Below the pieces are notes generated by a model, which was given only the letters and a program-made list of their open reading frames with translations, ran no database searches and was not told the DNA's origin. 61,813 bases of DNA, taken from Nitrosomonas sp. (GTDB lineage: Bacteria; Pseudomonadota; Gammaproteobacteria; Burkholderiales; Nitrosomonadaceae). The stretch is from positions 1-61,813 of the forward strand of contig JAJFJG010000063.1 of NCBI GenBank assembly GCA_021774265.1, given 5' to 3'. The position numbers were made by a program, and so were the translations under genes. Positions 17,497-32,951 of the stretch are shown here, piece after piece; positions within the stretch are counted from its first letter, which is position 1, and every line of letters starts with the position of its first letter.

Positions 17497-18999
17497 TCAC
17501 TTGGGGAAAGGTATACGTGACAGCCAAGCTTGGGACGCTGCCTCATTAACACTCAAAATCATGTCTGGGAAGAAACCAAAAACTAGAACTAAAAATGCAG
17601 GCACGCAAAGTAATAGTAATTCGCGTTTTTGTAAATCTTGCGTTTGGAGAACATCGTTATGCTTAATCGGACCTAGAAAAGCACGACGCGTATATGACAG
17701 CATATAGGCAGCACCCAAAATAGCACCTGCCAACGCGGCAATTCCTAAGCCCGTATTTGCCGACAGAGCACCAACAATCATTAGGAATTCGGCGGGAAAG
17801 CCACTTGTACCTGGAATTCCAATACTGGCAAGTAGAAATAAGAAATACAAACAAGTCAGTTTAGGCATTACTTTAGCTAGACCACCTAAATGAATCACAT
17901 CAGTGCTGCCTAAACGGTGTTGAATAAACCCGGCGATAAGAATTAAAGCGCTGGCAATCAATGTAAAGTTAAGCATTTGAAATACTGCACCTTGAACACC
18001 TTGCAAATTGAGTGATGCAATACCAATTATAACCAATCCAACATGGCTGATACTGGCATATGCAAGTAAGCGTCTCAAGTTAGTTTGCCGCAAAGCTATC
18101 AAAGCACCATATACGAGTGTAATGGCACCCAGTATAGATAACATCCAAATAAATTCAACTGAGGCAGTTGGTGCCAACGGCATAGTAAATCGAAGAATGC
18201 CGTATAAACCAAGTTTCAGCCCCATCAATAAAGCAACAATATGAGTCGGTCCTTCCATTGCCGCTGCTGGCAACCATGTATGAAAAGGCACCAGCGGCGC
18301 CTTTACCGCAAAACCAAATAATAACAGCATGAATACAACAGTCTGCAAATTCTCATGTAATGGCGTTTCTAACAATACAGGCAAACTAAAAGACAAATCA
18401 TACGGTATGCTACCGCCTATCTGAAGAGCATGATTTGATGCCAGAATAATAATTGCTAATAATAATGGAACACCACCAAACAACATAAACAATGTGTATT
18501 TCATTGCGGCACTACGTCGTTGTGAACCGATACCCCACAGCCCAATCAGAAATAAAAATGGCGGCAACGTTAGTTCCCAGAACAAGAAAAATAACATCAT
18601 GTCTAAGGCACAAAAGACACCAATTGTTACAGCTTCAAGCGCCAATAATAATGAAAAATGAAAACGCGGGTTGTATTGTGTGGAGTTCCAACAAGCCAGC
18701 ATCGCAACAATTGTCAATAGGGCAGTCAATGGCAAAAATAGTATAGAAATACCATCAACACCAACAAGATATTCAATGTTTAATAGCGGAATCCACGCAT
18801 ATTGCTCCACTAACTGAAAATCAGCATTGGCGCTATCAAAAAACAGCAAGGCAAGAAGCGTTAGTAATAATTCAAAACTAGCAATACCCAGTGCAATTGT
18901 CTTGGCTTGTTTGGCATTACTGACAGCGCCTACCGCAATGGCACCAAATAAAGGGAGCAGAATAATAAGCGTTAATAGTGGAAAATTAATATCACTCAT
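17497..18999 (-). CDS. NuoM/MrpD-like proton-conducting membrane subunit (DAB-associated)
   Basis: 500 aa, highly hydrophobic; VGVDGIS, FWE, AVKAPLVPFHTWLP, LKLGLYG, AYASISH, PGTSGFPAE. Confidence 0.9.
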   Translation of the reverse strand: MSDINFPLLTLIILLPLFGAIAVGAVSNAKQAKTIALGIASFELLLTLLALLFFDSANADFQLVEQYAWIPLLNIEYLVGVDGISILFLPLTALLTIVAMLACWNSTQYNPRFHFSLLLALEAVTIGVFCALDMMLFFLFWELTLPPFLFLIGLWGIGSQRRSAAMKYTLFMLFGGVPLLLAIIILASNHALQIGGSIPYDLSFSLPVLLETPLHENLQTVVFMLLLFGFAVKAPLVPFHTWLPAAAMEGPTHIVALLMGLKLGLYGILRFTMPLAPTASVEFIWMLSILGAITLVYGALIALRQTNLRRLLAYASISHVGLVIIGIASLNLQGVQGAVFQMLNFTLIASALILIAGFIQHRLGSTDVIHLGGLAKVMPKLTCLYFLFLLASIGIPGTSGFPAEFLMIVGALSANTGLGIAALAGAILGAAYMLSYTRRAFLGPIKHNDVLQTQDLQKRELLLLCVPAFLVLVFGFFPDMILSVNEAASQAWLSRIPFPK

Positions 19000-20578
19000 C
19001 TTCGGTGTCCTTGGTATTAGTCAATACAGTGTCAGAATGTTGTTCATAATAGGATGACGAGTGCAATGCGCTCATCGGTGACACACCCTGATCTATAATA
19101 TGTATCCAGGGCGACGTGTTCAAGCCAACACTGATAATTAATGTACAAATGACAGCCGCAATTATACCTTCATTCTTAAGCGAAGGTGGCGTGCTGACTT
19201 TTGGAGAATATACAAAAGGGCCTTGAAAACGTATTGGCTCAGCAATAAAAATCTGTTGGAAAGCGCGTAGCAATAATGCCGCGGCTAAAACATTACCAAA
19301 AAGTATCGCTATAGAAACAATCCAACCAGAACCTTTAATTGTTCCTTCCACCAACAAGTGAATACCATCAAATCCAGGTGTTCCAGGCATAACCATTGTA
19401 CTCAACGCACAAACAACAAATAAAACGGCGATGGCAGCATTGGAATCAAACATGCCACCTAAACGTGGGATAAATGAAGTATGTGTTCGTTTATAAATCA
19501 TACCAATGACAAACAACATACCGGCTGTTGCAAGGCCAAAGGTGAGAGATAACAAAATGCTGCCTTCCATGCCGTAAGTGTTGAAATCAAAAACACCGAT
19601 AATCAGCATACCTGTTTGGCTGATCACAGCAAATGCAAGCAAGCGTCGAATATTGATTTGCATTAATGCTAATAATGCACCATAAAAAATACCAATTAGT
19701 CCAAGTATAATTACGAAATCAGTCCACTGTTCAGCAACTTCTGGCAAGAAAGGAATAACAAACCGAATAACGGCATAAATTCCAAGTTTTAGTCCAATTA
19801 AGAAAATACCTGCACTAGCAATCGTGCCTTGCTCTGCAAGTACCGGTAACCATCCATGAAATGGAAATAATGGCATACGGATGGCAAAACCAAAAAATAG
19901 CAGAGTAAAAATTAATGTCGCATATTCAAGTGCGGCATCACTATGCCGGAGCACAGTCCAGTCAAACGATACCGTATCACTTGATCCCATGACACCAAAC
20001 CCAAGCATCAAGAAACCACACAGAACCATTAACAAACCACTACCCCAATGTTGCAATAATAACGCAACAACCCAGCGTCGATTCTGTCCAGAACCACCAC
20101 GAATAGTCATTATTACAATAGGAACTAGCTCAAGTAGGCATGCAAGCCAGAATTGCAATGCATTCATAGCCGAGAACGCTGCAATTAGAATAGCTCCGTA
20201 TCCTAGTATGCAGGCAATTTGTATCCTATCTGAAGCACGCCGAGTCGTTAATGTATAAATTAACGCCACCAGCATTAGTATGGCCGTTAAGGGAATAAAT
20301 AAGATACTAGCGCCATCAACACCAACAGAATAGTTAAAAATTATATTCTGAAATTGTTCATACAATTGAATGCCGGGGCGGTCAGTTTCAAAAACAGACA
20401 GAAGATAAATGCTAAGTAAAATAGTTATTATTGTCGCGACAAATCCAGTACGCAACGCTAGAACTGCCGAAGGTAACAGCAAAACTATAAGCATTGCTAT
20501 TAGTGGGATCAGCGTTAATGTTGTTAATAACGGAAATGCCGCCGTTTCCGACCATAGGGTTATATTTACAGTATTCAT
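18992..20578 (-). CDS. divergent NuoM/MrpD-like membrane subunit (DAB-associated)
   Basis: VGVDGAS, FAIRMPLFPFHGWLP, LKLGIY, PGTPGFD. ATG 20578 with SD GAGGA preferred over track start 20602. Confidence 0.87.
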   Translation of the reverse strand: MNTVNITLWSETAAFPLLTTLTLIPLIAMLIVLLLPSAVLALRTGFVATIITILLSIYLLSVFETDRPGIQLYEQFQNIIFNYSVGVDGASILFIPLTAILMLVALIYTLTTRRASDRIQIACILGYGAILIAAFSAMNALQFWLACLLELVPIVIMTIRGGSGQNRRWVVALLLQHWGSGLLMVLCGFLMLGFGVMGSSDTVSFDWTVLRHSDAALEYATLIFTLLFFGFAIRMPLFPFHGWLPVLAEQGTIASAGIFLIGLKLGIYAVIRFVIPFLPEVAEQWTDFVIILGLIGIFYGALLALMQINIRRLLAFAVISQTGMLIIGVFDFNTYGMEGSILLSLTFGLATAGMLFVIGMIYKRTHTSFIPRLGGMFDSNAAIAVLFVVCALSTMVMPGTPGFDGIHLLVEGTIKGSGWIVSIAILFGNVLAAALLLRAFQQIFIAEPIRFQGPFVYSPKVSTPPSLKNEGIIAAVICTLIISVGLNTSPWIHIIDQGVSPMSALHSSSYYEQHSDTVLTNTKDTEDE

Positions 20579-20585
20579 CAAATCC

Positions 20586-22154
20586 TCAAATTGAAGACGC
20601 AAACATCAAAACCAGAAATACAAATAAAACAAGATAACGTGGTTTAAGTAGCAATTTCTCAAGTGTATTCGCAGCATGACCAAGTTGGCGACCAATATCA
20701 ACCATTCCTACACCAACACCACGTAGAACCAGTCGTTCTTCAAACCAACTCATGGCACTTGCCATCCATTCCAACAGCTTTCCTGCAAAACCTTTTCCCC
20801 TAGCCAATTTATTCAGCTCCAGATTAGGTTGTTCAGTCAAGGTCTTTTGTTCCAATTGCGCCAGTGATGAGATCGCCATAGCTGCCGATGTAGGTGTTCC
20901 CATCGCTCTATCAATTACTTTATTATCAAAATATTCCAAATCTCGGCCCAATCCGTTAATTGGTCTAACTAACGTACGATCAATGATTGGATCTAACCAA
21001 AAACGTTGTAACGAAGCAATATATAACCAACGTTGATTTGCAATACTTTTTGATATTGGTCTCATTGGGTTGCCATGCACATAGTGCAACAATGATGGCG
21101 CTGTCATTACCTGATAGCCTCTCACCACGGCATGCGCACATAAATGCCAAGTTGCTAACTCCCAAAACCCTAATCCACAAGCTAGAAACATTAAACCAAT
21201 CTGGCCAGTAATCGCAAAACATATTGAGCTTTTTACATCTGTCTGAGTTAACCCTACAATAAGGCTGTATATCGCAGTAAACAAGCCGACAATAATCAAC
21301 AACGCCATTGTTAAAGGTGCTTTTTCAATTATCGGTTGAAGTAAAATCACCAAAAAGACACCCGCATGGATCATAACTGCACCGTAAAACAATGCACTTG
21401 AAGGCGTCGGACCTTCCATTGCCCTTGCTAACCAAGGTGTAAAAGGTAACTGTGCAGACTTAGCTATCGCAGCCACAACAAAACACAAACTAATAACAGT
21501 CGCTGTTGGCATTGTTAGCTGCTCGGAAAAAGAATTTAAGTCACTCCAATTGACTGTCCCTACATAATAAAAAGATAAACCAATACCTAATAAAAATCCG
21601 GCATCACCAACACGGTTGGTAACAAAAACGCGTGTTGCATTAATCGTTGCAATAGGTCGATCATAGGCAAATAATATTAAGAAATATGAACATACTCCTG
21701 CAATCTCCCAGCCTATGAAAGTGCTTACAGCATTACCTGATAACACTATCAAAAGCATGGCAAAAGAAAACAAGCTCAGCGTAAAAAAGAAACGATGAAA
21801 TCCTGCTTCCTTATGTATGTAGTTAATTGAGAACCGAGTAATAATGACCAGAATAATAGAAAACAATAAAGCTGCAAAAACATTAAACCCACTTGAAATG
21901 AAATTTACTTCAATCTTCAGTAAGTCACTTGCAAGCCATTGCCCGACATAAAATGACCCCTTGTTCATTCCCAGCAAGTCAAAAATAAAAAGCGCAATTG
22001 ATAAAAAGCAAGAAACTACAATTGCATTTTTTGCAATAGAAACAGTCGTACTTTCTCCTTCTCTACCACTAATCTTGTCAAAAAAATGACCAAAACCAAT
22101 AATAATTGCAGCCAACAATGGTAGCAGAGGTATAAATACAGCCAGAAAATCCAT
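20586..22154 (-). CDS. dabB: DabB/NuoL-like membrane subunit of an inorganic carbon transporter
   Basis: 522 aa; FIGWE, NRVGDAG, AKSAQLPF.PWLARAMEGPTPSSA, QTDVKS (NuoL/MrpA type); begins 1 nt after the DabA stop. Confidence 0.85.
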   Translation of the reverse strand: MDFLAVFIPLLPLLAAIIIGFGHFFDKISGREGESTTVSIAKNAIVVSCFLSIALFIFDLLGMNKGSFYVGQWLASDLLKIEVNFISSGFNVFAALLFSIILVIITRFSINYIHKEAGFHRFFFTLSLFSFAMLLIVLSGNAVSTFIGWEIAGVCSYFLILFAYDRPIATINATRVFVTNRVGDAGFLLGIGLSFYYVGTVNWSDLNSFSEQLTMPTATVISLCFVVAAIAKSAQLPFTPWLARAMEGPTPSSALFYGAVMIHAGVFLVILLQPIIEKAPLTMALLIIVGLFTAIYSLIVGLTQTDVKSSICFAITGQIGLMFLACGLGFWELATWHLCAHAVVRGYQVMTAPSLLHYVHGNPMRPISKSIANQRWLYIASLQRFWLDPIIDRTLVRPINGLGRDLEYFDNKVIDRAMGTPTSAAMAISSLAQLEQKTLTEQPNLELNKLARGKGFAGKLLEWMASAMSWFEERLVLRGVGVGMVDIGRQLGHAANTLEKLLLKPRYLVLFVFLVLMFASSI

Positions 22155-22155
22155 C

Positions 22156-25100
22156 TTAAGCTCCTGTTAGATTTGGTTGTTTGACTAAGACAGGAGGCAA
22201 CGGATCATTCATATCTTGGAAGTATTCTGTGGATGTGTCGCATACTGGAATAACTTTATTTGTTGGCTGCCAAGGAACAAATCCCACACCACGCTCAAAT
22301 ACCGATATTTCGCCAGTTTCTGGATCTATAGCACTTAGCAACACCCAGCCACCACCAACTAGCTCTTGGATGCTTTCTTGCCGTCCATAAATTTCACCGA
22401 GCACTTCCGTCTTTGCCTCAACCAAGATCTGTAACCTTACTGGCTCATGAATCTCAACCATTTGTTTAGGCAAACCAGTTCTTAAGTCACTATTGGTACC
22501 TTCCATGACACCAAAAAGACCCGTAATATTATGCGGGATCTTAGTACTACACCCAAAACGTTCATTGTCAATTGTTGAGAAATAATACTCAAGATTAATA
22601 CCCGCACCAACAGGACCAACCGCTAGCAAAACGTTTTCTAAATATTTACCACCTGGATCCTGGGTAGCATCATAAGAGATCAGAAATGGTCGCCTATCCA
22701 GGAATATTCCTTGCGTCACAGAACGTCGTCCAACTATGGCCGAAGCATTTGTAGCGTGCCCATACTCTGGACGTACCTGACTTAAGTCATTAGAGCGCAG
22801 ATGTGCATGTTCAATCCCAGCCGCAGGGGTTTTAGGATTATTAGCCGAGAAAAATCGACGGCATCGCTCTTGAGCTGAGGCGTTTCTCCCTTCAATAAGA
22901 TCATCTCTGAGCTTTTCATAATTCAGCTTTAAAGCTTCGGGAACATCCTCGGTGTCATACCAAGTAACGACATCGCTACATGTGTCATGCTCTGCACCTA
23001 AAAACCAGGTATCCTCAGGAATTACAATACCTCTTTCAGCCAACATTTTTCGAATTACTGGACGATTGATCATTGCCGCAAACAGACGAGCATTAGGCCC
23101 GCCACGCTTTCCACTACACGCACCGCAGTCATGAGCTGCTTCGTGAGGATTATTCTGACTTGTCGACCCATGCGCCATTAAACTTACAATTTTTGAAAAC
23201 CCATAGGTTAAACCGGTATTACGCAGAAACCCTTCTAACCTGTCGACCTGCTCTACATCAGTAAATCCTAGACGTGGTTTAGTAGGAGTAGCCTCATTTT
23301 TCGCGTCTTCTTCAGAAGCTGTAAACAACAGTTCTGTAGGTACTTTTGCGTCTATCTTTTGCCGCATGGAATTATTAAATTGTATAAGCTGTTTAGGCAA
23401 AAAAGTTCTTCCCAACAAACCAACAAATACAGCAGGTGCTAAGACATCAATCATGGCATGAGAAATAATCAAACTACGTCGCAACGATTGATTCATTAAA
23501 TAAGCAAGCTTCTGGTAGAAATTGCGTCCTTTATTATGCGCATCCACAATTGTTTCAGTACCTTTTCTTGGCACTTCATCAACATTATGAGAGGGTACAA
23601 CTACGATTGGGCATAATGCCGTTCTATGGTGATCATCAAGACCTTTATAATTCATAGGTAGACCATAAAAGCCAGCAGCACCTAATGTTTCAATTCTTGG
23701 GTTAATCTCTTCTAATTGACGACGTATACTTTCTTCTCGCTCATCAATGCAAAACACAACCTGCGCTTCTGGTCGCTGGTCTCTTATAGCCCAACGACCT
23801 CGTTTAAGATTTGCATTAATCGCATGAAAAAAGTCTTCTCTATAATGATACTCATAAGCATAAAGCCAAACTTTACTACGTTCAGGTGCCCTAAATTTAT
23901 CGAGTATGCTCTGCATTTGCACCAAATCATTCTTGCACATATCTTGAATATCAGCTGCATTCAAACCTAAATGTTGGCACAAGCGAAAAAGTCGCCAACC
24001 TCTATTAAATACATCATGACCATCGCCATATTCTGCCATTGGGCTGAATTGCCACGTCCACATTAAATCAGCGAGATTCTTCCATTCATCTTGGTGCTGT
24101 CGTTCTGACCCTGTGCGTTGAATTAGATCTTTAGCCATCAGTGTCAAATACTCAGGTAATTTACCTTGATACAGCTGATTGCGAACCATGAACTCAGAGA
24201 GATTATTACGGAAATAATATTGTAATGTTCCTAATTTGGCACTTATTTTCCAATTATCATGGCAAGCTTGATCAAGCCATAATCGACCTACCGTTATACG
24301 GATAGCCAAATAATCTGCCAGATGCATCTCGGCATTATTATCGGTATGGTAACCTGGATTATGCTGTCGCCAGTTAATTAGTCCAGACCAACCAGGCATT
24401 TCCAATGCTAGTCCCTGCAGATAACCCTCCCACTTTTCCTCGGGCATTTCTAAGTACTGTAGTTGCTGAATAATGCAATCCACTGCATCTTCTGGTGATT
24501 CTGAGACAATACGTTGCCAATCAGGCAAATCGTGTAAAAACGAATTCACATCATATTGAACCGATAATCTCCAGGCTGCGTACAAACCAAGCTTACTACG
24601 CTCTGGCAATTGCCATGCTGCGACCCCCTCATCCATTGCTGACGCGCAGATACGGATCATTTGAGGGCGAACAGAATAGAGTATATCTGTACCACAAAGT
24701 GCCATAATCAATCCGCGTAATGTGATTTTATCGCCAATTTGTGCCATCATTGCATCAAGTTGGGCCTCAGCTTCTTGTTGCATTTTTTGATGAACAGACA
24801 CATAAACACCATCAGTCTGACTTGAATTAATTTTCTCTAGCCATTCTCTAGCATTTTCTTCCGACAAATCAAGCATATTTTCGGGATGCAGGTTTGACAA
24901 TTCAATGTCCAGTTTATCTAATATGCTGTCCCATAGCTGCTTAACAACTAGGCTCTGATCTGAAGATTGTGAAAGCATTCGCTTTCTAGGTTGTTCTGGC
25001 ACATCTTCCTGAATTTTCTCTAGCGCATTCAACTCTTCTACTTGCCAGCTAAGTTGGCTCCTTGTTACAGGCTGCAAATCATGCAGTAAAGCCACTTTAT

Positions 25101-25434
25101 AAATATCTTTACGTTCTATCGTTAATTTTTCAGAATGAAAAACAACATCATCTGCTTGTAACTCTTTCGCATGTGCTAATGATGCTAATAAATCTGCATC
25201 AGTAATTCTTCCCTGCTGATAAAGCGCTCTATTTTGTATCTCCGGCAAATAACCATAAGTCCCTGTCAATGCTTCATATTCTTCCAAAGCTTTTTCAAAA
25301 GGAAAACGTTGAAAACCATGAATGGTGTTGTGATGTACAAATTCATGGATCGGACCTTGCCCCGGCAGAACATGATCCAAATGATTCAATGCGGCAATAA
25401 TATGCTCACGTTGATCGTTAAATTCAGAAGTCAT
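22156..25434 (-). CDS. dabA: DabA (DUF2309/UPF0753) beta-carbonic-anhydrase-like subunit
   Basis: 1092 aa; LPGQGPI..FVHHNT, FCIDEREES (CxD), HGSTSQNNP...DCGAC (His, Cys zinc ligands), RPEYGHA, FLISYD, INLEYYFS, DLRTGLP.QMV..HEP.RL. Confidence 0.93.
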   Translation of the reverse strand: MTSEFNDQREHIIAALNHLDHVLPGQGPIHEFVHHNTIHGFQRFPFEKALEEYEALTGTYGYLPEIQNRALYQQGRITDADLLASLAHAKELQADDVVFHSEKLTIERKDIYKVALLHDLQPVTRSQLSWQVEELNALEKIQEDVPEQPRKRMLSQSSDQSLVVKQLWDSILDKLDIELSNLHPENMLDLSEENAREWLEKINSSQTDGVYVSVHQKMQQEAEAQLDAMMAQIGDKITLRGLIMALCGTDILYSVRPQMIRICASAMDEGVAAWQLPERSKLGLYAAWRLSVQYDVNSFLHDLPDWQRIVSESPEDAVDCIIQQLQYLEMPEEKWEGYLQGLALEMPGWSGLINWRQHNPGYHTDNNAEMHLADYLAIRITVGRLWLDQACHDNWKISAKLGTLQYYFRNNLSEFMVRNQLYQGKLPEYLTLMAKDLIQRTGSERQHQDEWKNLADLMWTWQFSPMAEYGDGHDVFNRGWRLFRLCQHLGLNAADIQDMCKNDLVQMQSILDKFRAPERSKVWLYAYEYHYREDFFHAINANLKRGRWAIRDQRPEAQVVFCIDEREESIRRQLEEINPRIETLGAAGFYGLPMNYKGLDDHHRTALCPIVVVPSHNVDEVPRKGTETIVDAHNKGRNFYQKLAYLMNQSLRRSLIISHAMIDVLAPAVFVGLLGRTFLPKQLIQFNNSMRQKIDAKVPTELLFTASEEDAKNEATPTKPRLGFTDVEQVDRLEGFLRNTGLTYGFSKIVSLMAHGSTSQNNPHEAAHDCGACSGKRGGPNARLFAAMINRPVIRKMLAERGIVIPEDTWFLGAEHDTCSDVVTWYDTEDVPEALKLNYEKLRDDLIEGRNASAQERCRRFFSANNPKTPAAGIEHAHLRSNDLSQVRPEYGHATNASAIVGRRSVTQGIFLDRRPFLISYDATQDPGGKYLENVLLAVGPVGAGINLEYYFSTIDNERFGCSTKIPHNITGLFGVMEGTNSDLRTGLPKQMVEIHEPVRLQILVEAKTEVLGEIYGRQESIQELVGGGWVLLSAIDPETGEISVFERGVGFVPWQPTNKVIPVCDTSTEYFQDMNDPLPPVLVKQPNLTGA

Positions 25435-25446
25435 AGAATCTCAATC

Positions 25447-26919
25447 CTATTGAATACGTAGTTTAATAATGTCATTCATTTGAGTAATAGTCGCCATTGA
25501 AAGGTCAATCAACGGTGCAGGCCACATACCAAATAACACTATTGCAAAAACTAACACACCAGCGGCAATTAGCTCGTTAATTCTCAAATCTTCAATATTG
25601 CGCATTTGCGGTTTTACTGGCCCAGTAAATAGCATCCCTATTGTACGCATCGCATATGCCGCACCAATAAGTATACTTAGACCAAGAAATACCATTAAGA
25701 AGCCCCACTCTTGAAAACCACCTATAAAAGCATGAAGTTCAGCAACAAAACCAACAGTCCCAGGTAATCCCATTGCCGCAAATAATGTAATTGTCATGAA
25801 TAAAGCAAAGCGAGGCATCACCTGAACTAAAGAGCTGTAATCCAAAATATTACGGGTTTGTGTTCGTTCATAAAGCAAGCCAACTAATAAAAACAATGCG
25901 CCAGCTATTAACCCATGAGCAGTCATTTGTATAACGGCTGCCGTCAAACCAGTAATGTTCAACGTTGCAATACCCAGCAGCACGATACCCATATGGCTCA
26001 CAGAGGAATAAGCCACCATCGCCTTGAGATCGGTTTGTCGCCAAGCTAACAACCCGCCGTAAATCATCCCAAATAATGCGAGGAAAACAAGTGCAGGCTG
26101 TAATGTCTGCGCCGCTTCTGGCAGCATAACAACTGCTCTGATTAATCCATAAGCGCCCATTTTCAACAAAATGCCTGACAGTAAAATACTAACGGGACTC
26201 GGTGCTTCCACATGCGCAAGAGGCAACCAACCATGCAATGGAAAAATCGGCATTTTGACACCAAAGCCAATCAGAAGTCCGATTAACACCCACACTTGTT
26301 CATCTTTCGGCATGCTTTGAGCAGCTATACTCATGGATGCCATCAATGTGCCGCCATGTGCTGGCATATATTGACTAATCGCTAGCAAGCTGATCAACAT
26401 AAAAATTGATCCACCCATAGTGTAAAGAACGAAGTTAAGACTTGCCACGTGTCGTCGCACACCACCCCATCTACCAATAAGGAAAAACAATGGTGCTAAA
26501 GTTACCTCCCAGAAGATATAAAACAGTGTCCAATCCTGCGAGAGAAACACACCCAGCATTCCAAATTCTAATAAAAGAATACTAATATAGTATCCTTTTA
26601 TTTTGTCAGTAATACTGAATGAAGCAAGTAACGCAATAGAAGTTAATAGCGTCGCTAAAACTAACATTGGTAGCGACAAACCATCTATTCCAAGCGCAAA
26701 AATAGTCCCTAGTTGGGGATTAAGTGAGTATTGCTGCTCAAATTGCAACCCACTAAATTGCAAGTCATAAATAGCAACCAGAAAACAACTAATCAGGAAA
26801 GCTATGGTTGCAAAAGAGTTTGCGATGAAACGTATTTGGCTAGTTTTATGGTGTGGCGTAACTGCTAGTACTAGAATACCTACAGCTGGCGTCAAAAGTA
26901 ATAAACTAAGTATCCCCAT
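25447..26919 (-). CDS. NuoM/MrpD-like proton-conducting membrane subunit (DAB-associated)
   Basis: 490 aa; LGIDGLS, FWE, VKMPIFPLHGWLPLAHVEAP, LLKMGAYG, AYSSVSHMG, PGTVGFVAE; ends 12 nt before dabA. Confidence 0.9.
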   Translation of the reverse strand: MGILSLLLLTPAVGILVLAVTPHHKTSQIRFIANSFATIAFLISCFLVAIYDLQFSGLQFEQQYSLNPQLGTIFALGIDGLSLPMLVLATLLTSIALLASFSITDKIKGYYISILLLEFGMLGVFLSQDWTLFYIFWEVTLAPLFFLIGRWGGVRRHVASLNFVLYTMGGSIFMLISLLAISQYMPAHGGTLMASMSIAAQSMPKDEQVWVLIGLLIGFGVKMPIFPLHGWLPLAHVEAPSPVSILLSGILLKMGAYGLIRAVVMLPEAAQTLQPALVFLALFGMIYGGLLAWRQTDLKAMVAYSSVSHMGIVLLGIATLNITGLTAAVIQMTAHGLIAGALFLLVGLLYERTQTRNILDYSSLVQVMPRFALFMTITLFAAMGLPGTVGFVAELHAFIGGFQEWGFLMVFLGLSILIGAAYAMRTIGMLFTGPVKPQMRNIEDLRINELIAAGVLVFAIVLFGMWPAPLIDLSMATITQMNDIIKLRIQ

Positions 26920-27080: not shown

Positions 27081-27482
27081 TTATTCAGGTCGAACCAACA
27101 GAATGGAAGCTTTCACTTTGGAGACTAATTGCTCTGCAACTGACCCCATCACAAAGCGATCCAAACCACGACGATTGGCTGTTCCAACAACCACCAGATC
27201 TGCGCCCCATTCACTTGCAGCAACAGAGATTGATTCTGCAATACCAGCCGCTCCATACATAGCCTCAGCTGTTATTAATCGTGTTTCTACTGACAAAGCA
27301 TTCATTGATGCTTCAGCTTTCGCTAATACTTCAGCTGCAGATTGATTACCTTCGCTTTCATTACTTATCGCATGAACGATACAAATAGCTCCATTATACG
27401 AATTAGCTATATTTTGCGCCTCATTTAATGCGCCCTGAGATGTTTTCCCATCATCTACAGCAACCATGATTTTCTTATACAT
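27081..27482 (-). CDS. universal stress protein (UspA family)
   Basis: MYKKIMVAVD, ADLVVVGTANRRGLDRFVMGSVAE; ATG 27482 with SD AAGGA (track start 27524). Confidence 0.93.
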   Translation of the reverse strand: MYKKIMVAVDDGKTSQGALNEAQNIANSYNGAICIVHAISNESEGNQSAAEVLAKAEASMNALSVETRLITAEAMYGAAGIAESISVAASEWGADLVVVGTANRRGLDRFVMGSVAEQLVSKVKASILLVRPE

Positions 27483-27518
27483 ACAATCCATCCTTGTAAT
27501 TTTATATTTTATTACAAA

Positions 27519-27576
27519 TGTCAAAGCACAATGTTAAAACTATGTTAAAACTATGTTAAAAACTTGCACTTTGACA
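27519..27576 (-). repeat. 13-bp stem-loop enclosing three tandem 11-bp repeats
   Basis: ATGTTAAAACT x2 + ATGTTAAAA at 27531-27561, flanked by TGTCAAAGCACAA / TTGCACTTTGACA, which pair fully (two G:U) as minus-strand RNA. Confidence 0.8.
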
Positions 27577-27604
27577 AAAAGTAACATGAATAAAAACAAA
27601 CCAA

Positions 27605-28921
27605 TTAATCTATTGCAGTTTTGCTCTTTTCCTTAATATCATCAATATATCTCTTGACAATCGCTTTACCAGGCATGCTGTCATTCTTGTTATATACCAA
27701 GTAATGAACAATTCCATGAATCGCCATAGCAATTAACAAGCCTTCAAAAATGCCGACTTGAAATACTAATGCACCACACAAAATTGCCAGCATCAATGCA
27801 TAAGGACCATGATGAATCACGTGCCCAAGACCTGCTATCATTTTCCAGCCAGTAAACATCATAATTGCTGCTAGTGCAAATTTAGGCAAATAGTCTAAAT
27901 ACTGAACATTAAACACGAAGAAAGTAACCACGCCACCGACAATAATGACAGAGAACTTGGTCATTGCACCGGCCAGCCTGTTAGTGGTGCTTTTTGCCAA
28001 GCCGTCAAGGTTAGTCATACCACCAAAGAAGCTTGAACCCATGTTTGCAATCCAAATAGCCAACAAACTGTTGTTACTATTGCATTTGCGTTTCAACGGA
28101 TCGATCTTCTGAATCGCTGCATTACTCATTACCTGTTCAATCACATCGATAATCGCCAACATCGCACAGAAAAGTATCATATAAACCATCATCATGGCCG
28201 TGAACTCATCTGGTATTGGCAAACGGAAACTTAATGCCACGTCTTCCACGAAGATCATCGGAACTTCGACCAACTGCGCTATGATTACACCACCAATAAT
28301 TAAAACAAAATACGGAATAGCAGGTTTCGTATGTTGGAATTTCGAGAACAGGAATAAGAATATACCGAAACCAACACCCGATATCATTAGCATCTGCACC
28401 CTGGCCGCATTCCAGAATGCGTCAGCATCTTCTGAACCTACTGGTACTTCATAAGTCATTTCTGCAAATTTCAAAGCAATTTTCAATCCAATACCGGCCA
28501 GTAGACCCTCAACTAAATAAACTGGCACAGCTATTAGTAAGAATTTTTGCCAGTTAAAGTGCCATATTATCGCTTGCATTAAAGCTGTTAAGAAAATACA
28601 AAACGCCATGTTTTGAATGCCAAATGATGCAACACCCAAAGCCAATACTGGAGCAAGACCCGCCGCAATACCTGGGCACCCTACAAAATTGCCTGGTCTA
28701 AAGAAGGCATTAATCCAACCAACCAGACAAGCAAAAGCAACGGTCGCTAAACCTACCTTAATTGGATAATCTGACATCATAGCAATGCCAATTGACAACG
28801 GAATTGCCATAGCACCGGTAATTAATCCAGCAGCTACATCACGTGCTGCGTATTGCGACTGAAAAGCTGCAGAACCCGGTATCGTAACCGGTCCTGAGTC
28901 TTGTTGTGTTTGCGAAGTCAT
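27605..28921 (-). CDS. SulP/SLC26-family anion (probable bicarbonate) transporter lacking a STAS domain
   Basis: 438 aa; RDVAAGLITGAMAIPLSIGIA, GLLAGIG, ANMGSSFFGGM, LPKFALAAI; ends shortly after the last TM. Confidence 0.88.
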   Translation of the reverse strand: MTSQTQQDSGPVTIPGSAAFQSQYAARDVAAGLITGAMAIPLSIGIAMMSDYPIKVGLATVAFACLVGWINAFFRPGNFVGCPGIAAGLAPVLALGVASFGIQNMAFCIFLTALMQAIIWHFNWQKFLLIAVPVYLVEGLLAGIGLKIALKFAEMTYEVPVGSEDADAFWNAARVQMLMISGVGFGIFLFLFSKFQHTKPAIPYFVLIIGGVIIAQLVEVPMIFVEDVALSFRLPIPDEFTAMMMVYMILFCAMLAIIDVIEQVMSNAAIQKIDPLKRKCNSNNSLLAIWIANMGSSFFGGMTNLDGLAKSTTNRLAGAMTKFSVIIVGGVVTFFVFNVQYLDYLPKFALAAIMMFTGWKMIAGLGHVIHHGPYALMLAILCGALVFQVGIFEGLLIAMAIHGIVHYLVYNKNDSMPGKAIVKRYIDDIKEKSKTAID

Positions 28922-29429: not shown

Positions 29430-30736
29430 AAAATAGCCACCAGTAGGTTAATGTGGTCATCTATTGCGCCTTTCAGATAGTTTTTTGCTAATCTGAAATC
29501 TGATGCTAAGTGGCCCTAAGTTGTCAATAATGTGTTCAATTACAGCCCTCCTTCTGCATAGTTTTCGCTTTTTTTCTTTATAGTAAGTATCTTTTTTATT
29601 GCTTTTTTCGACAGTATGACCTGTATTTTATTGACGCTTATTTATCATGACAAACTCGATCAAACACGCCCTGTTACGCAGCCTTGATGCTTAAACGTGG
29701 CTCAGTAATAGTGAGCTGTCATGTTATATTTTCAGGCAACAATAACAATCACGCCACTTGTCGCAGTACAGGCAATGGATGCCTTACTGCCATATTCATA
29801 TGGTTTTGTGATCTCTGCCTTTTGCGATGCAATATACATTGGGTTCGTGTATCAAATAGATTTTGTTCTTGCCTTTAGGCTTCAGGCTTAACACCCGCAT
29901 ATACAATATAAATTTGTTTATAATAATCAAACAGGTAATACTGAGACAACTCTTTTTATGAGTTTTCGAATCAACGTATGGATGATTGTTCTGGGGAGTC
30001 TCAATGCTTTCTTAGCCTTGGCTCTTTTCTTTACGTGACGAAAGTGTCGAATACTCAAGCGCAAGGACTTTACTTCCTTGACATAGGTGCGCCGATGCTA
30101 AAATCATGTGCTTTAGCAAACTTGTTTAAGCGGTTAATAATCTTAATAGCCAGCTTGCTATCCGTCGGGTAGGTGATGATTTCTCGTGAACGGTGGAGTC
30201 AATATTAACCGCATCTTCTAGCGCCAAGTCCCCATGCAAGCCAATAATCACCCTAGATAGATATCACCCCAATCCCTTCTACACCACTGTGTTTGCGCAA
30301 ATGCTAAGCTCTTTGCTGTGGTACGAAAGTTTCTGCCGAAACGCTTTCAGGCCACAAAAAGCCTGGTAATAAGGGTTGCGTTTCCAATGCAAAATAGCAA
30401 CTTCATCATTTAGATTTTTCAATTGTTTGAAAAACAATAGTTCTACCATTAAGCGTATCGGTTTGCTTGGAGCACCAATAGCCTCTTTGTAATAACTGAG
30501 ACTTTTGCAAAACCCTGATAGTTGAATAATTAATCCTTTGTAATCAATCTTCAAAAATCTTTAGCCAGGGCTTTTGCAAAAGTCTCTAACTAAGAAAGTT
30601 TCCTCAAAAGAATGCCTAGCTGAGGCTAAGGCTAGTTTGAACAGCGGATCATTGGGTCAAGCTGTAATAGCAAGTCTGTATCAAATAGATTTGCTTGATG
30701 GACAGAGCTCTTTGAGTGAGCAATTTCGCTAACCAT
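29430..30736 (-). pseudogene. IS5-family DDE transposase pseudogene (frameshifts, stops, MITE insertion)
   Basis: Fragments in different frames: GAPSKPIRLMV...NPYYQAFCG, NIDSTVHE..ITYPTDSKL, HEPNVYCIAKGRDHKPYEYGSK, RRRAVIEH, NYLKGAIDDHIN; 3' boundary approximate. Confidence 0.9.
30498..30586. mobile_element. 89-bp MITE nested in the IS5 transposase
   Basis: Perfect 15-bp inverted repeats GAGACTTTTGCAAAA / TTTTGCAAAAGTCTC; flanking 5-bp direct repeat TAACT (30493-30497, 30587-30591). Confidence 0.9.
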
Positions 30737-30843: not shown

Positions 30844-32277
30844 CTAGATAGAATTAACGGGCGGACGAATATGAGCAAAAATTACTGTGAAGGATGTGAA
30901 AGAACTTGGCTCACTAGTAACTTTAATTTGTAGTTTATTATTTTCTGCTGCTATTTTTACGATAGACAACCCAATACCACTCGATGATTTATTATGTAAC
31001 GCTGCTCGAGGAGAGTAAAAATATTCATTAAAAATTTTTGGTAGGTCTTTGCTTTCAATGCCAATACCATGATCTGTAATGGTAAGACTTGCTGTCGCAT
31101 TAACTTGATCGACAATAGACCTAACTTCTACTTTTGAATTATTATGAGAGTATGTAATTGCATTTGAAATAATATTTTCCAGAAGAATTTCTAATTGATC
31201 TGGAATACCATAATAAATGAAATTATCTGTTTTAATATCCAATGCAATTTGCCTTGCATTTGCAACAGGAATTAACTTATCAACACACTTTTGCAAAGTT
31301 TTGTTAATATCAATCGGTTCAAATGCAGCCGTGTCTAAGCAAGTTTCTTTTAATCGCTGCAATCGAAGTAAATCTAAAATAAGACCTGACATGCTTTTAG
31401 CACGCTGATCTATTTTCACTAATGTTTCTTTTGTTTCATCTGAGGCATCACCACAATAACCTGCATTAATCAGGTTTATCTTACTGCGAATAGCATCTAA
31501 TGGCGACTTCAACTGATGCGTCATTAGCACAGCATATTGGTCTTTTTCTTCTTGCGCCTGATTAATCTTTTTGTACGCATCAACGAGGTAATGCTCATGA
31601 GTATGTACAACAATTGAGAGCCTTGAAACTACATACCAGACAATTACAAACAAAATATCTAAAGCGATCATCCATAAAAACGTATTACTTCTATACTGAT
31701 ATTCTTCAGAAAAACTGTAAGCAAATTTAATCGTATTTTGTGCTGAAATTACTAAAGAACTTTCAAGTAATAAAATAACCGTGTACATGATACATACCAG
31801 CACCGTCACAAGGAAACTTTCTATTGTTGAAAAGAATATACAAGCTAAAGCAATATGTAGCACATAGAAAAATGAAGCGGGCGTGGCAGTACTACCAACA
31901 TAATGCACAACAGCTGACAAACAGATTAAATCAATTACAATTTGCACCCATAAATTAATGGTAGGCGAGTTAAACCTTCCTTCTTTACAGTAATTTAGTG
32001 CATATATATAGAAAATATTAGCCAGACTTAATACTAATATAATTACAATTGGCCAGTTCTGATGTTCCATCACACCAAATTGCATCAGCGTGTTTGGCAC
32101 AAAAATAGCAGAAGCTTTGAGTATCACTAAAGCACCGATTACCGCCCAGCGAAAGATAATAAACCAGCGAATATTACTGACAAGAATCTTATCACTTAGT
32201 TTTAACCCATTGCCTCTTATCCCAGGCAATGTCGTTTTATTTTTAGATTGATGCCAATCAAACTCAGAAGTGGCCAT
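30844..32277 (-). CDS. multi-TM sensor histidine kinase
   Basis: About 6 N-terminal TMs; H-box THQLKSPL, N-box ENIISNAITYS, DHGIG, SSGIGL. Confidence 0.92.
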   Translation of the reverse strand: MATSEFDWHQSKNKTTLPGIRGNGLKLSDKILVSNIRWFIIFRWAVIGALVILKASAIFVPNTLMQFGVMEHQNWPIVIILVLSLANIFYIYALNYCKEGRFNSPTINLWVQIVIDLICLSAVVHYVGSTATPASFFYVLHIALACIFFSTIESFLVTVLVCIMYTVILLLESSLVISAQNTIKFAYSFSEEYQYRSNTFLWMIALDILFVIVWYVVSRLSIVVHTHEHYLVDAYKKINQAQEEKDQYAVLMTHQLKSPLDAIRSKINLINAGYCGDASDETKETLVKIDQRAKSMSGLILDLLRLQRLKETCLDTAAFEPIDINKTLQKCVDKLIPVANARQIALDIKTDNFIYYGIPDQLEILLENIISNAITYSHNNSKVEVRSIVDQVNATASLTITDHGIGIESKDLPKIFNEYFYSPRAALHNKSSSGIGLSIVKIAAENNKLQIKVTSEPSSFTSFTVIFAHIRPPVNSI

Positions 32278-32283
32278 CGCGAT

Positions 32284-32682
32284 TTAAGCTGACTTTTCGG
32301 CAGATCCACTATTTTCTAAGCGATCACGAATGGTTTCTAATAAACTAATAGGTTCTACGGGCTTTTCAAGAATACACACCCATTCATACTCACCATCCTC
32401 AAAATATGGCTTAATCATGTCGCCCAAAGAAGTCAAGAAAATGGCTTGCATATTTGGAAATCGATTGTGAACGTGCGCATAAGTAGTGAGTCCGGCATCC
32501 ATAGACTCAACCATCACGTCAAGAATCGCCAAATCAGGCAAATTAGCGCTATCTTCTAATGCATCAATAAAATCTTGCATAGTGAGGTAACTTGTTACTT
32601 CATACCCATTTTTAGTCAAAATGCGCGCAACGGCATCTCTAATATCCGAATCATCGTCGACATGAGCAATTCTTCCTGTCAT
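32284..32682 (-). CDS. single-domain (CheY-like) response regulator
   Basis: HVDDD, LDVMV (phospho-Asp), FLTS, LEKP; no output domain; ATG 32682 with SD GGAGG (track start 32733). Confidence 0.9.
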   Translation of the reverse strand: MTGRIAHVDDDSDIRDAVARILTKNGYEVTSYLTMQDFIDALEDSANLPDLAILDVMVESMDAGLTTYAHVHNRFPNMQAIFLTSLGDMIKPYFEDGEYEWVCILEKPVEPISLLETIRDRLENSGSAEKSA

Positions 32683-32951
32683 ACGAACACCTCCCCTTAG
32701 TAATATTTTAATAATTGAGGCTTTAAATACCAATCTTTAATCAGCATATTATTCTAGTCAGAATAAGCAGCAACTCCCTTTATCTTGTTTACTTATCCCA
32801 GATTTTTTATCACTGTAGACACAAATAAATAACGGCAATACAACCTCACTTCTATTATTGTTATAAAAACAATATACACCTTGCGATTCCAACTGAGCAA
32901 GTAATTTCTTTGGGGAAACACGGTAAACCGCCTTTTTGCAAACATTCAAAC

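Follow-up and report, generated by a model that had tools for sequence, protein, structure and literature searches.

The C-terminal tail of the NuoL-like protein DabB, encoded in a 61,813-nucleotide stretch of DNA from Nitrosomonas sp. (the window; contig JAJFJG010000063.1), is a true homologue of the lateral helix HL and of the terminal transmembrane segment (TM) 16 of NuoL. It consists of a NuoL-type HL with one extra unit and of a terminal TM, and it probably straps three NuoM-like subunits (M1, M2 and M3) into one row. The established parts of this picture are the HL/TM16 homology, the extra unit, the loss of TM12–15 from DabB, the co-occurrence of the NuoM-like genes and the DabB–M2 fusions. 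No other sequence evidence speaks as strongly for the three NuoM-like proteins being true subunits, and the tail also yields a prediction of their order. Operons of this five-gene type are widespread, the full set being present in 27 of 60 DabA regions from a 401-genome sample of the phylum (two with a frameshifted gene).

Table 1. Features of the dab locus and of the DabB chain (positions in the window)
Feature	Position	Strand	Remarks
SulP-like gene	27605-28921	minus	
M1, NuoM-like	25447..26919	minus	every central-axis residue retained
dabA	22156..25434	minus	PF10070, 1092 aa; beta-CA-type motifs intact at residues 561, 754, 761
dabB, NuoL-like subunit	20586..22154	minus	522 aa; PF00361, PF00662; TM1-11, without TM12-15, HL tail and terminal TM
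M2, NuoM-like but altered	18992..20602	minus	no acid at canonical TM5/TM12 column, TM7 Lys replaced by Arg
M3, NuoM-like	17497..18999	minus	every central-axis residue retained
DabB core TM1-11, residues 1-358	21081..22154	minus	E150, R181, D184, K232, H263, H337, H341, R345
TM5 Glu150, ion-pair residue near subunit interface	21705..21707	minus	
HL unit A, residues 384-418, acidic bead D410	20901..21005	minus	superimposes on first half of NuoL HL
Variable linker, residues 420-454	20793..20897	minus	low pLDDT; degenerate repeat around E435
HL unit B, residues 455-481, bead E472	20712..20792	minus	extra unit relative to canonical NuoL
HL unit C, residues 482-504, bead E499	20643..20711	minus	
Terminal TM, residues 505-522	20589..20642	minus	equivalent of NuoL TM16

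The minus-strand gene order is SulP-like gene, Usp gene, M1, dabA, dabB, M2 and M3 (Table 1), with 12 bases between M1 and dabA and 1 base between dabA and dabB; the probable start of M2 is the ATG at 20578, after a Shine–Dalgarno-like GAGGA overlapping the dabB stop. The nearest named relatives are Nitrosomonas records with 94% and 76% identity. A PF10070 DabA with a Cys/Asp/His/Cys site adjoins a PF00361 gene, as in DAB/DAC/MpsAB systems, and inorganic carbon accumulation by DabA–DabB driven by proton motive force is predicted from this homology. M1 (467 bits) and M3 (475 bits) exceed the TIGR01972 cut-off for NuoM of 263.8 bits and M2 (262.7 bits) falls narrowly below it, while DabB, at 279.5 bits, stays under the NuoL cut-off of 556. 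DabB is not the complex I subunit NuoL: it has neither sixteen TMs nor the distal Lys of TM12, and it does not lie in a nuo operon. Redox-arm genes are absent from the locus. That the NuoM-like genes are displaced complex I genes was rejected, as the genome's own nuoL and nuoN were located on other contigs (C85 and C158, respectively); nuoM was not found in this genome and probably falls in a contig break.

In the surroundings of the operon, the SulP-like (438 aa) and Usp pair (27081-28921) is duplicated elsewhere in the genome (G000:C193:4844-6658; 78% and 62% identical), and SulP genes adjoin many related loci. A short ORF (30279-30554) that, by eye, resembles a transposase fragment separates the SulP gene from genes for a histidine kinase and a response regulator (30844-32733). 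Residue 893 of DabA is His in the NuoM-associated lineage (67 of 76 motif matches; Pro in 4), and the equivalent residue in DAB1/DAB2 is Leu (5 matches, with a pattern that missed most DAB2-type DabA). This Leu has been proposed to disfavour bicarbonate binding, and the His may give back the hydrogen-bond donor of ordinary beta-CAs.

The antiporter core of DabB is shortened. Its sequence can be matched to solved NuoL chains as far as about residue 361; a weak match sets in again shortly before their HL. An AlphaFold2 model from an 84-sequence alignment (pLDDT 84) has 11 core TMs, and its residues 1-411 superimpose on residues 1-562 of E. coli NuoL (400 aligned residues, 2.5 Å, Z 40.6-41.3); the fold search with this model scarcely tests residues past 436, and the best 50 matches listed in either fold search with DabB include no DAB structure. 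According to match and model, DabB lacks NuoL TM12–15 (about 150 residues), so that TM11 runs almost directly into HL. The tail thus follows the antiporter core, as the original prediction had it, but this core is not complete. Relatives of 680-830 residues retain TM12–15 and bear the same tail behind them, which fixes the homology of the DabB tail. As a substitute for the lost helices, M1 was considered and rejected, the two features being uncorrelated: DabBs with one partner lack both TM12–15 and M1, and those with four partners have M1 together with the full TM set.

The three tail segments that had been singled out are present in the 522-residue ORF (residues 383-419, 460-481 and 487-507; 20898-21008, 20712-20777 and 20634-20696), followed by a single hydrophobic stretch at about residues 505-522. 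Their supposed amphipathic character is clear for A (hydrophobic moment up to 0.69) and C (up to 0.60), but only modest for B (0.2-0.35). In the model, the tail forms helices at residues 384-418, 456-477, 483-503 and 505-521, units B and C being separated by a Gly-rich break; the linker, of pLDDT below 50, contains a further helix (424-440) of low confidence. The amphipathic helix begins at the cytoplasmic surface of the NuoL-like core (2.5 Å, Z about 41), where unit A overlays the start of the NuoL HL, and the single terminal TM matches TM16, which bears out the proposed lateral-helix character. From this overlay, the first tail helix is predicted to run along the membrane; the distal tail would lie on the NuoM-like chains.

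The tail has not merely been kept from NuoL. Measured from the same anchor, it comprises 139 residues, as against 79 in the NuoL of the same genome and 79-83 in five complex-I NuoL proteins; DabB thus exceeds its own-genome counterpart by one unit of 26-27 residues plus the linker, with three HL units versus the two of own-genome and canonical NuoL. Units A, B and C resemble each other in profile–profile comparison (A~B, B~C and A~C at 4.3, 3.6 and 3.7 SD above column shuffles, a control that loses helical periodicity, so that part of this signal is generic amphipathicity) and in hhalign (probabilities of 35%, 50% and 4%; E 4e-4, 2e-4 and 0.012). The suggestion of internal repeats is made solid by the relatives L105, L095, L098 and L109, which carry plain tandem copies of 26 residues. 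Across 84 sequences, down to 29% identity, W386, P398, G419, G455, E472, E499 and P505 are at least 90% conserved. The W386–D410 spacing is 24 in 83 of 83 homologues and the E472–E499 spacing 27 in 80 of 83, the latter matching the D595–Q622 spacing of 27 in the own-genome NuoL. The G419–G455 stretch ranges from 4 to 68 residues in 82 homologues and is nearly absent in P0141; given its variable length and low pLDDT, the linker was rejected as a component of the strap.

Two-gene and five-gene loci were compared in a sample of 401 genomes from the phylum, 63 of which yielded a DabA; 60 regions were taken together with loci L001-L004, leaving aside the window's own genome, contig-edge fragments (G030, G090:C313, G118) and one sub-threshold match. 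Regions L053, L067 and L094 have no DabB in view, L053 carrying DabA with no DabB within 7 kb. Among the 30 loci of DabB–DabA order, two of them DAB1-type with a DabC-like gene, none of 32 DabBs matches a distal-tail HMM (E ≤ 10), the C-terminal TM is absent from all 32 and the TM5 Glu occurs in none. In DabA–DabB order, the distal tail is found in 29 of 31 (once in a frameshifted second ORF) and the TM5 Glu in 31 of 31. All 29 tail-bearing loci of this order have M2 and M3 downstream; 27 have M1 upstream, and in the other two the contig ends first. In L088 and L092, the two without a distal tail, the single NuoM-like partner is either degenerate or a fused half. Had two-gene DabBs borne the same tail, the original prediction would have fallen; it survives this comparison. 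The locus in the window lies outside the DAB1 and DAB2 subtypes in its gene order (dabA–dabB), in its separate branch and in the His at the DabA position for the bicarbonate hydrogen bond. The DabB of L092 (9535-11418), from the window's own genus, has a short tail and is extended at its C-terminus by a part similar to the second half of NuoM; P0197, P0222, P0224, P0215 and P0263 show the same DabC-like arrangement in one chain.

Further one- and four-partner operons came from 587 metagenome loci, which were ranked against a query with a long tail; the best 80 were taken and are thus not a random sample. HL units were counted in a hand-picked subset of 65 proteins (shuffles give 0.2-0.8 units) with a profile trained on three-partner tails, which makes the counts circular for that group, and weak on NuoL, where it detects only 0-3 units in six complex-I proteins. 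Tails without a full-length partner have 0 units in 13 of 16 cases, those with one partner 1 unit in 5 of 7, those with three partners 3 units in 16 of 21 and 4 in the other five, and eleven tails with four partners 3-7 units at a spacing of 26-27 residues (in L104, L105 and L109 the upstream partner lies off the contig and is assumed). On the DabB tree, each architecture forms one clade or grade (6 changes for 7 labels, quick tree), so that the trend amounts to about four independent states rather than 60 loci. Across no more than some four clades, and with exceptions, unit number follows the number of partner genes (0, 1, 3, 4 or more). In the quick, midpoint-rooted tree, four-partner forms branch first, and three- and one-partner forms both lack TM12–15; with this rooting, the topology suggests a stepwise reduction.

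The exceptions deserve to be listed. Four-partner tails often hold more units (5-7) than there are partner genes. L095 combines DabA–DabB and a seven-unit tail with no NuoM-like gene within 6.1 kb downstream, L118 has a DabB–M2 fusion and no M3 within 6.3 kb, and L147 has DabB–M2–M3 and no DabA within 7.8 kb. In L144, L150 and L151, a complex-I-type NuoL carries a third unit, with no visible partners beyond NuoM and NuoN (tail of 103 residues in L150 and L151). Nine loci (L098, L099, L100, L107, L110-L114) are six-gene operons of the type SulP–M1–DabA (about 1300 aa)–DabB (780-800 aa, full TMs)–M2–M3–M4; their M4 resembles MrpD/NuoN and has a Lys in TM12, and their DabB has 3-7 HL units.

Such surplus units would be explained if the units were real straps whose count is untied to gene number, one or more NuoM-like subunits being present in several copies in arms of varying length. 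The 3-7 regularly spaced units of the four-partner loci fit this idea, as does the weaker fourth unit in the linker of 5 of the 21 three-partner tails; this fourth unit, however, is missing in short-linker members and falls in a region of pLDDT below 50, and four-partner L105 has exactly four units, precisely 26 residues apart and without a linker. An arm of this kind is considered very unlikely.

If each partner takes one unit, the next question is the order of the row, on which M2 and its fusions bear. M2 is fused to DabB in relatives: DabB–tail–M2 fusions occur at six loci (L116-L119, L121, L122) and in two database proteins (P0124, P0133), the loci and P0124 being 67-99% identical to one another and P0133 46-47%. 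Apart from the divergent P0133, each has about 10-16 residues linking the terminal TM to the first TM of M2. Among 848 candidates, no protein longer than DabB was found with its region 330-522, in a search insensitive enough to miss the known fusions. At a rise of 1.5 Å per residue, a 26-residue helical unit spans about 40 Å. Since the linker is only 10-16 residues long, a straight tail could not run two subunits beyond M2 and still be joined to it; M2 would be the last spanned subunit, unless the tail forms a hairpin. In complex I, TM16 lies close to the N-terminal helices of the last subunit that HL spans, and the TM5 side faces away from NuoL. M2 lacks the canonical TM5 Glu in 36 of 36 sequences (E, Q or H follows two residues on), and its TM7 Lys is replaced by Arg, again in 36 of 36; in TM12, D-x-x-H replaces the canonical Glu. 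With the E, Q or H after the TM5 column and the D-x-x-H, M2 is not merely inert. M3 keeps the four axis charges in 36 of 36, and M1 does so wherever the column is covered; both retain the equivalents of E144/K234/K265/H322/E407, residues whose roles are taken from PMC9271201. The canonical TM5 Glu is likewise missing from the product of the gene that directly follows dabB, both in one-partner loci (9 of 9) and in four-partner loci (9 of 9). From the fusions, with which these residues are consistent, M2 likely caps the far end of the row, and the order would be DabB–(M1, M3)–M2, which differs from the gene order.

The row might instead follow the genes, DabB–M2–M3 corresponding to NuoL–M–N, with a tail that spans two subunits or hairpins back to M2 and with M1 elsewhere, for example on the face opened by the loss of TM12–15. 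Gene order itself, the joining of DabB to M2 in the fusions, the Gly-rich break between B and C in the DabB model and the existence of three-unit NuoL proteins with two visible partners all agree with such a row. However, M1 does not behave as a replacement for the lost TMs, the fusion linker is too short for a tail extending beyond M2, and M2 is without the canonical TM12 Glu, a residue that one would expect to be retained in a neighbour of DabB. The AlphaFold2 model of the L117 tail–M2 fusion (pTM 0.83; tail pLDDT 42-78, with a misaligned TM in the tail-only alignment rows) likewise gives B and C as one continuous, unbroken helix (residues 87-135, pLDDT 61-76). We regard the gene-order row as unlikely. 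A complex prediction of M2 (22-505), M3 (5-452) and the tail (455-522), run without controls, scored 0.01 versus a mark of 0.32 and weighs neither for nor against any of these arrangements.

A more radical alternative denies the strap altogether: the tail would be a relic of a NuoL ancestor or a dock for DabA or SulP, and the NuoM-like proteins a separate, co-regulated antiporter. The DabB lineage indeed branches nearer to complex-I NuoL than the DabBs of DAB1 and DAB2 do, and L095, L118 and L147 uncouple tail, partners and DabA from one another. A relic, however, would hardly keep the seven tail positions so strictly conserved, the tail is shorter in the one-partner clade, DabB–NuoM fusions are seen in both short-tail and long-tail groups, and the tight spacing of M1, dabA and dabB argues against separate systems. 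This alternative is accordingly rated very unlikely, and the claim that the NuoM-like proteins are true stacked subunits gains support from gene co-occurrence, the DabB–M2 fusions, the TM5 Glu and the unit-number trend.

In the preferred strap, one HL unit would serve each NuoM-like subunit: unit A would cover the immediate neighbour of DabB, unit B the middle subunit, and unit C with the terminal TM would lie on M2 at the far end, while the linker between A and B would loop out. HL would thereby hold a linear arm DabB–(M1, M3)–M2, with DabA placed on DabB as it is in solved DABs (PMC13684180, available in part). A DabB devoid of TM12 would have no distal-Lys exit of its own; as the exit is lost and E150 is kept, protons may enter sideways along the charged axis of M1 and M3, and several antiporter modules would drive one-way CO2 hydration by DabA. 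Extended to the whole family, this would give a third DAB lineage of redox-free arms of two, four or five antiporter modules with one carbonic-anhydrase head, in which the number of HL units sets the length, M2 is the distal cap and DabB, lacking an exit half-channel, is fed sideways via the stacked NuoM-like subunits. We put this forward tentatively, as a possibility about which doubt prevails. If true, it would provide a natural length series in which lateral “NuoL-only” coupling in complex I could be tested with no redox arm present, as well as a CO2 pump whose H+/CO2 ratio is tunable. In any case, the family offers a simple, redox-free setting for adding or removing HL units and antiporter modules, and it bears on the coupling of modules by HL and the charged axis in complex I as well as on the proton force that DAB spends per CO2.

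Parts of this picture are already known from the available portions of the literature, namely the operon type (COGNAT 2017, PMC5700660) and the match of HL length to subunit number in MBH, MBS, complex I and 2M. Our literature search, limited to main texts, returned no account of the DabB tail, the unit series, the fusions or the loss of TM12–15 and no experimental study of the five-gene operon.

Among known systems, the closest likeness of the DabB tail is HL plus TM16 of NuoL/Nqo12 (e.g., PDB 7p7l_L, with equivalents in MrpA and MbsH'), from which DabB differs by the absence of TM12–15, one extra unit, a variable linker, the lack of redox-arm genes and DabA as partner. The HL extension of 2M complex I is credited in PMC9040806 to Chadwick 2018. 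As far as the available texts go, 2M complex I (Nitrospira) and Complex_I_3 of Ca. Manganitrophaceae combine an HL insertion with extra subunits, as DabB does with one extra unit of 26-27 residues and three partner genes; yet they are quinone oxidoreductases, whereas the DabB system is not a complex I and has the beta-CA-like DabA as its catalytic head. In MBH, MBS and complex I, the length of HL corresponds to the number of subunits (PMC7684303, in the part available), and 26-residue HL insertions accompany extra pumping subunits, although Yu et al. also describe them in complex I forms besides the expanded one (both PMC9040806, in the part available).

The operon type was seen earlier as “clade C” of COG3002/COG1009 (COGNAT 2017, PMC5700660), with ybcC (dabA) upstream of a nuoL homologue and NuoM and sulfate-permease genes near, and the several membrane genes were taken there to suggest the translocation of several ions; the available text offers gene maps, with no tail, subunit order or experiment. 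DAB2 of Halothiobacillus neapolitanus (DabA2–DabB2, PDB 9rd0) shares with our locus the DabA zinc-site motifs adjoining a NuoL-like subunit, and 9rd0_B matches DabB residues 60-360 (E 7e-32), TM1–11 being conserved. The solved DabB2 comprises 15 TMs; its HL is only short, and Ile occupies the position of the TM5 Glu (bioRxiv 10.64898/2026.03.13.711513, available in part), in agreement with DabBs of DabB–DabA order having neither tail nor TM5 Glu. The DAB2 order is dabB–dabA without NuoM-like partners, in contrast to dabA–dabB with three of them here. In DAB1 (DabABC, Thermocrinis albus), a third membrane subunit, DabC, is required and can be aligned with those helices of NuoM that adjoin NuoL (PMC13684180, in part); this DabC, however, is half-size and, in the text available, devoid of proton residues, while the Nitrosomonas operon has three full-length partners, two of them with intact axis residues.
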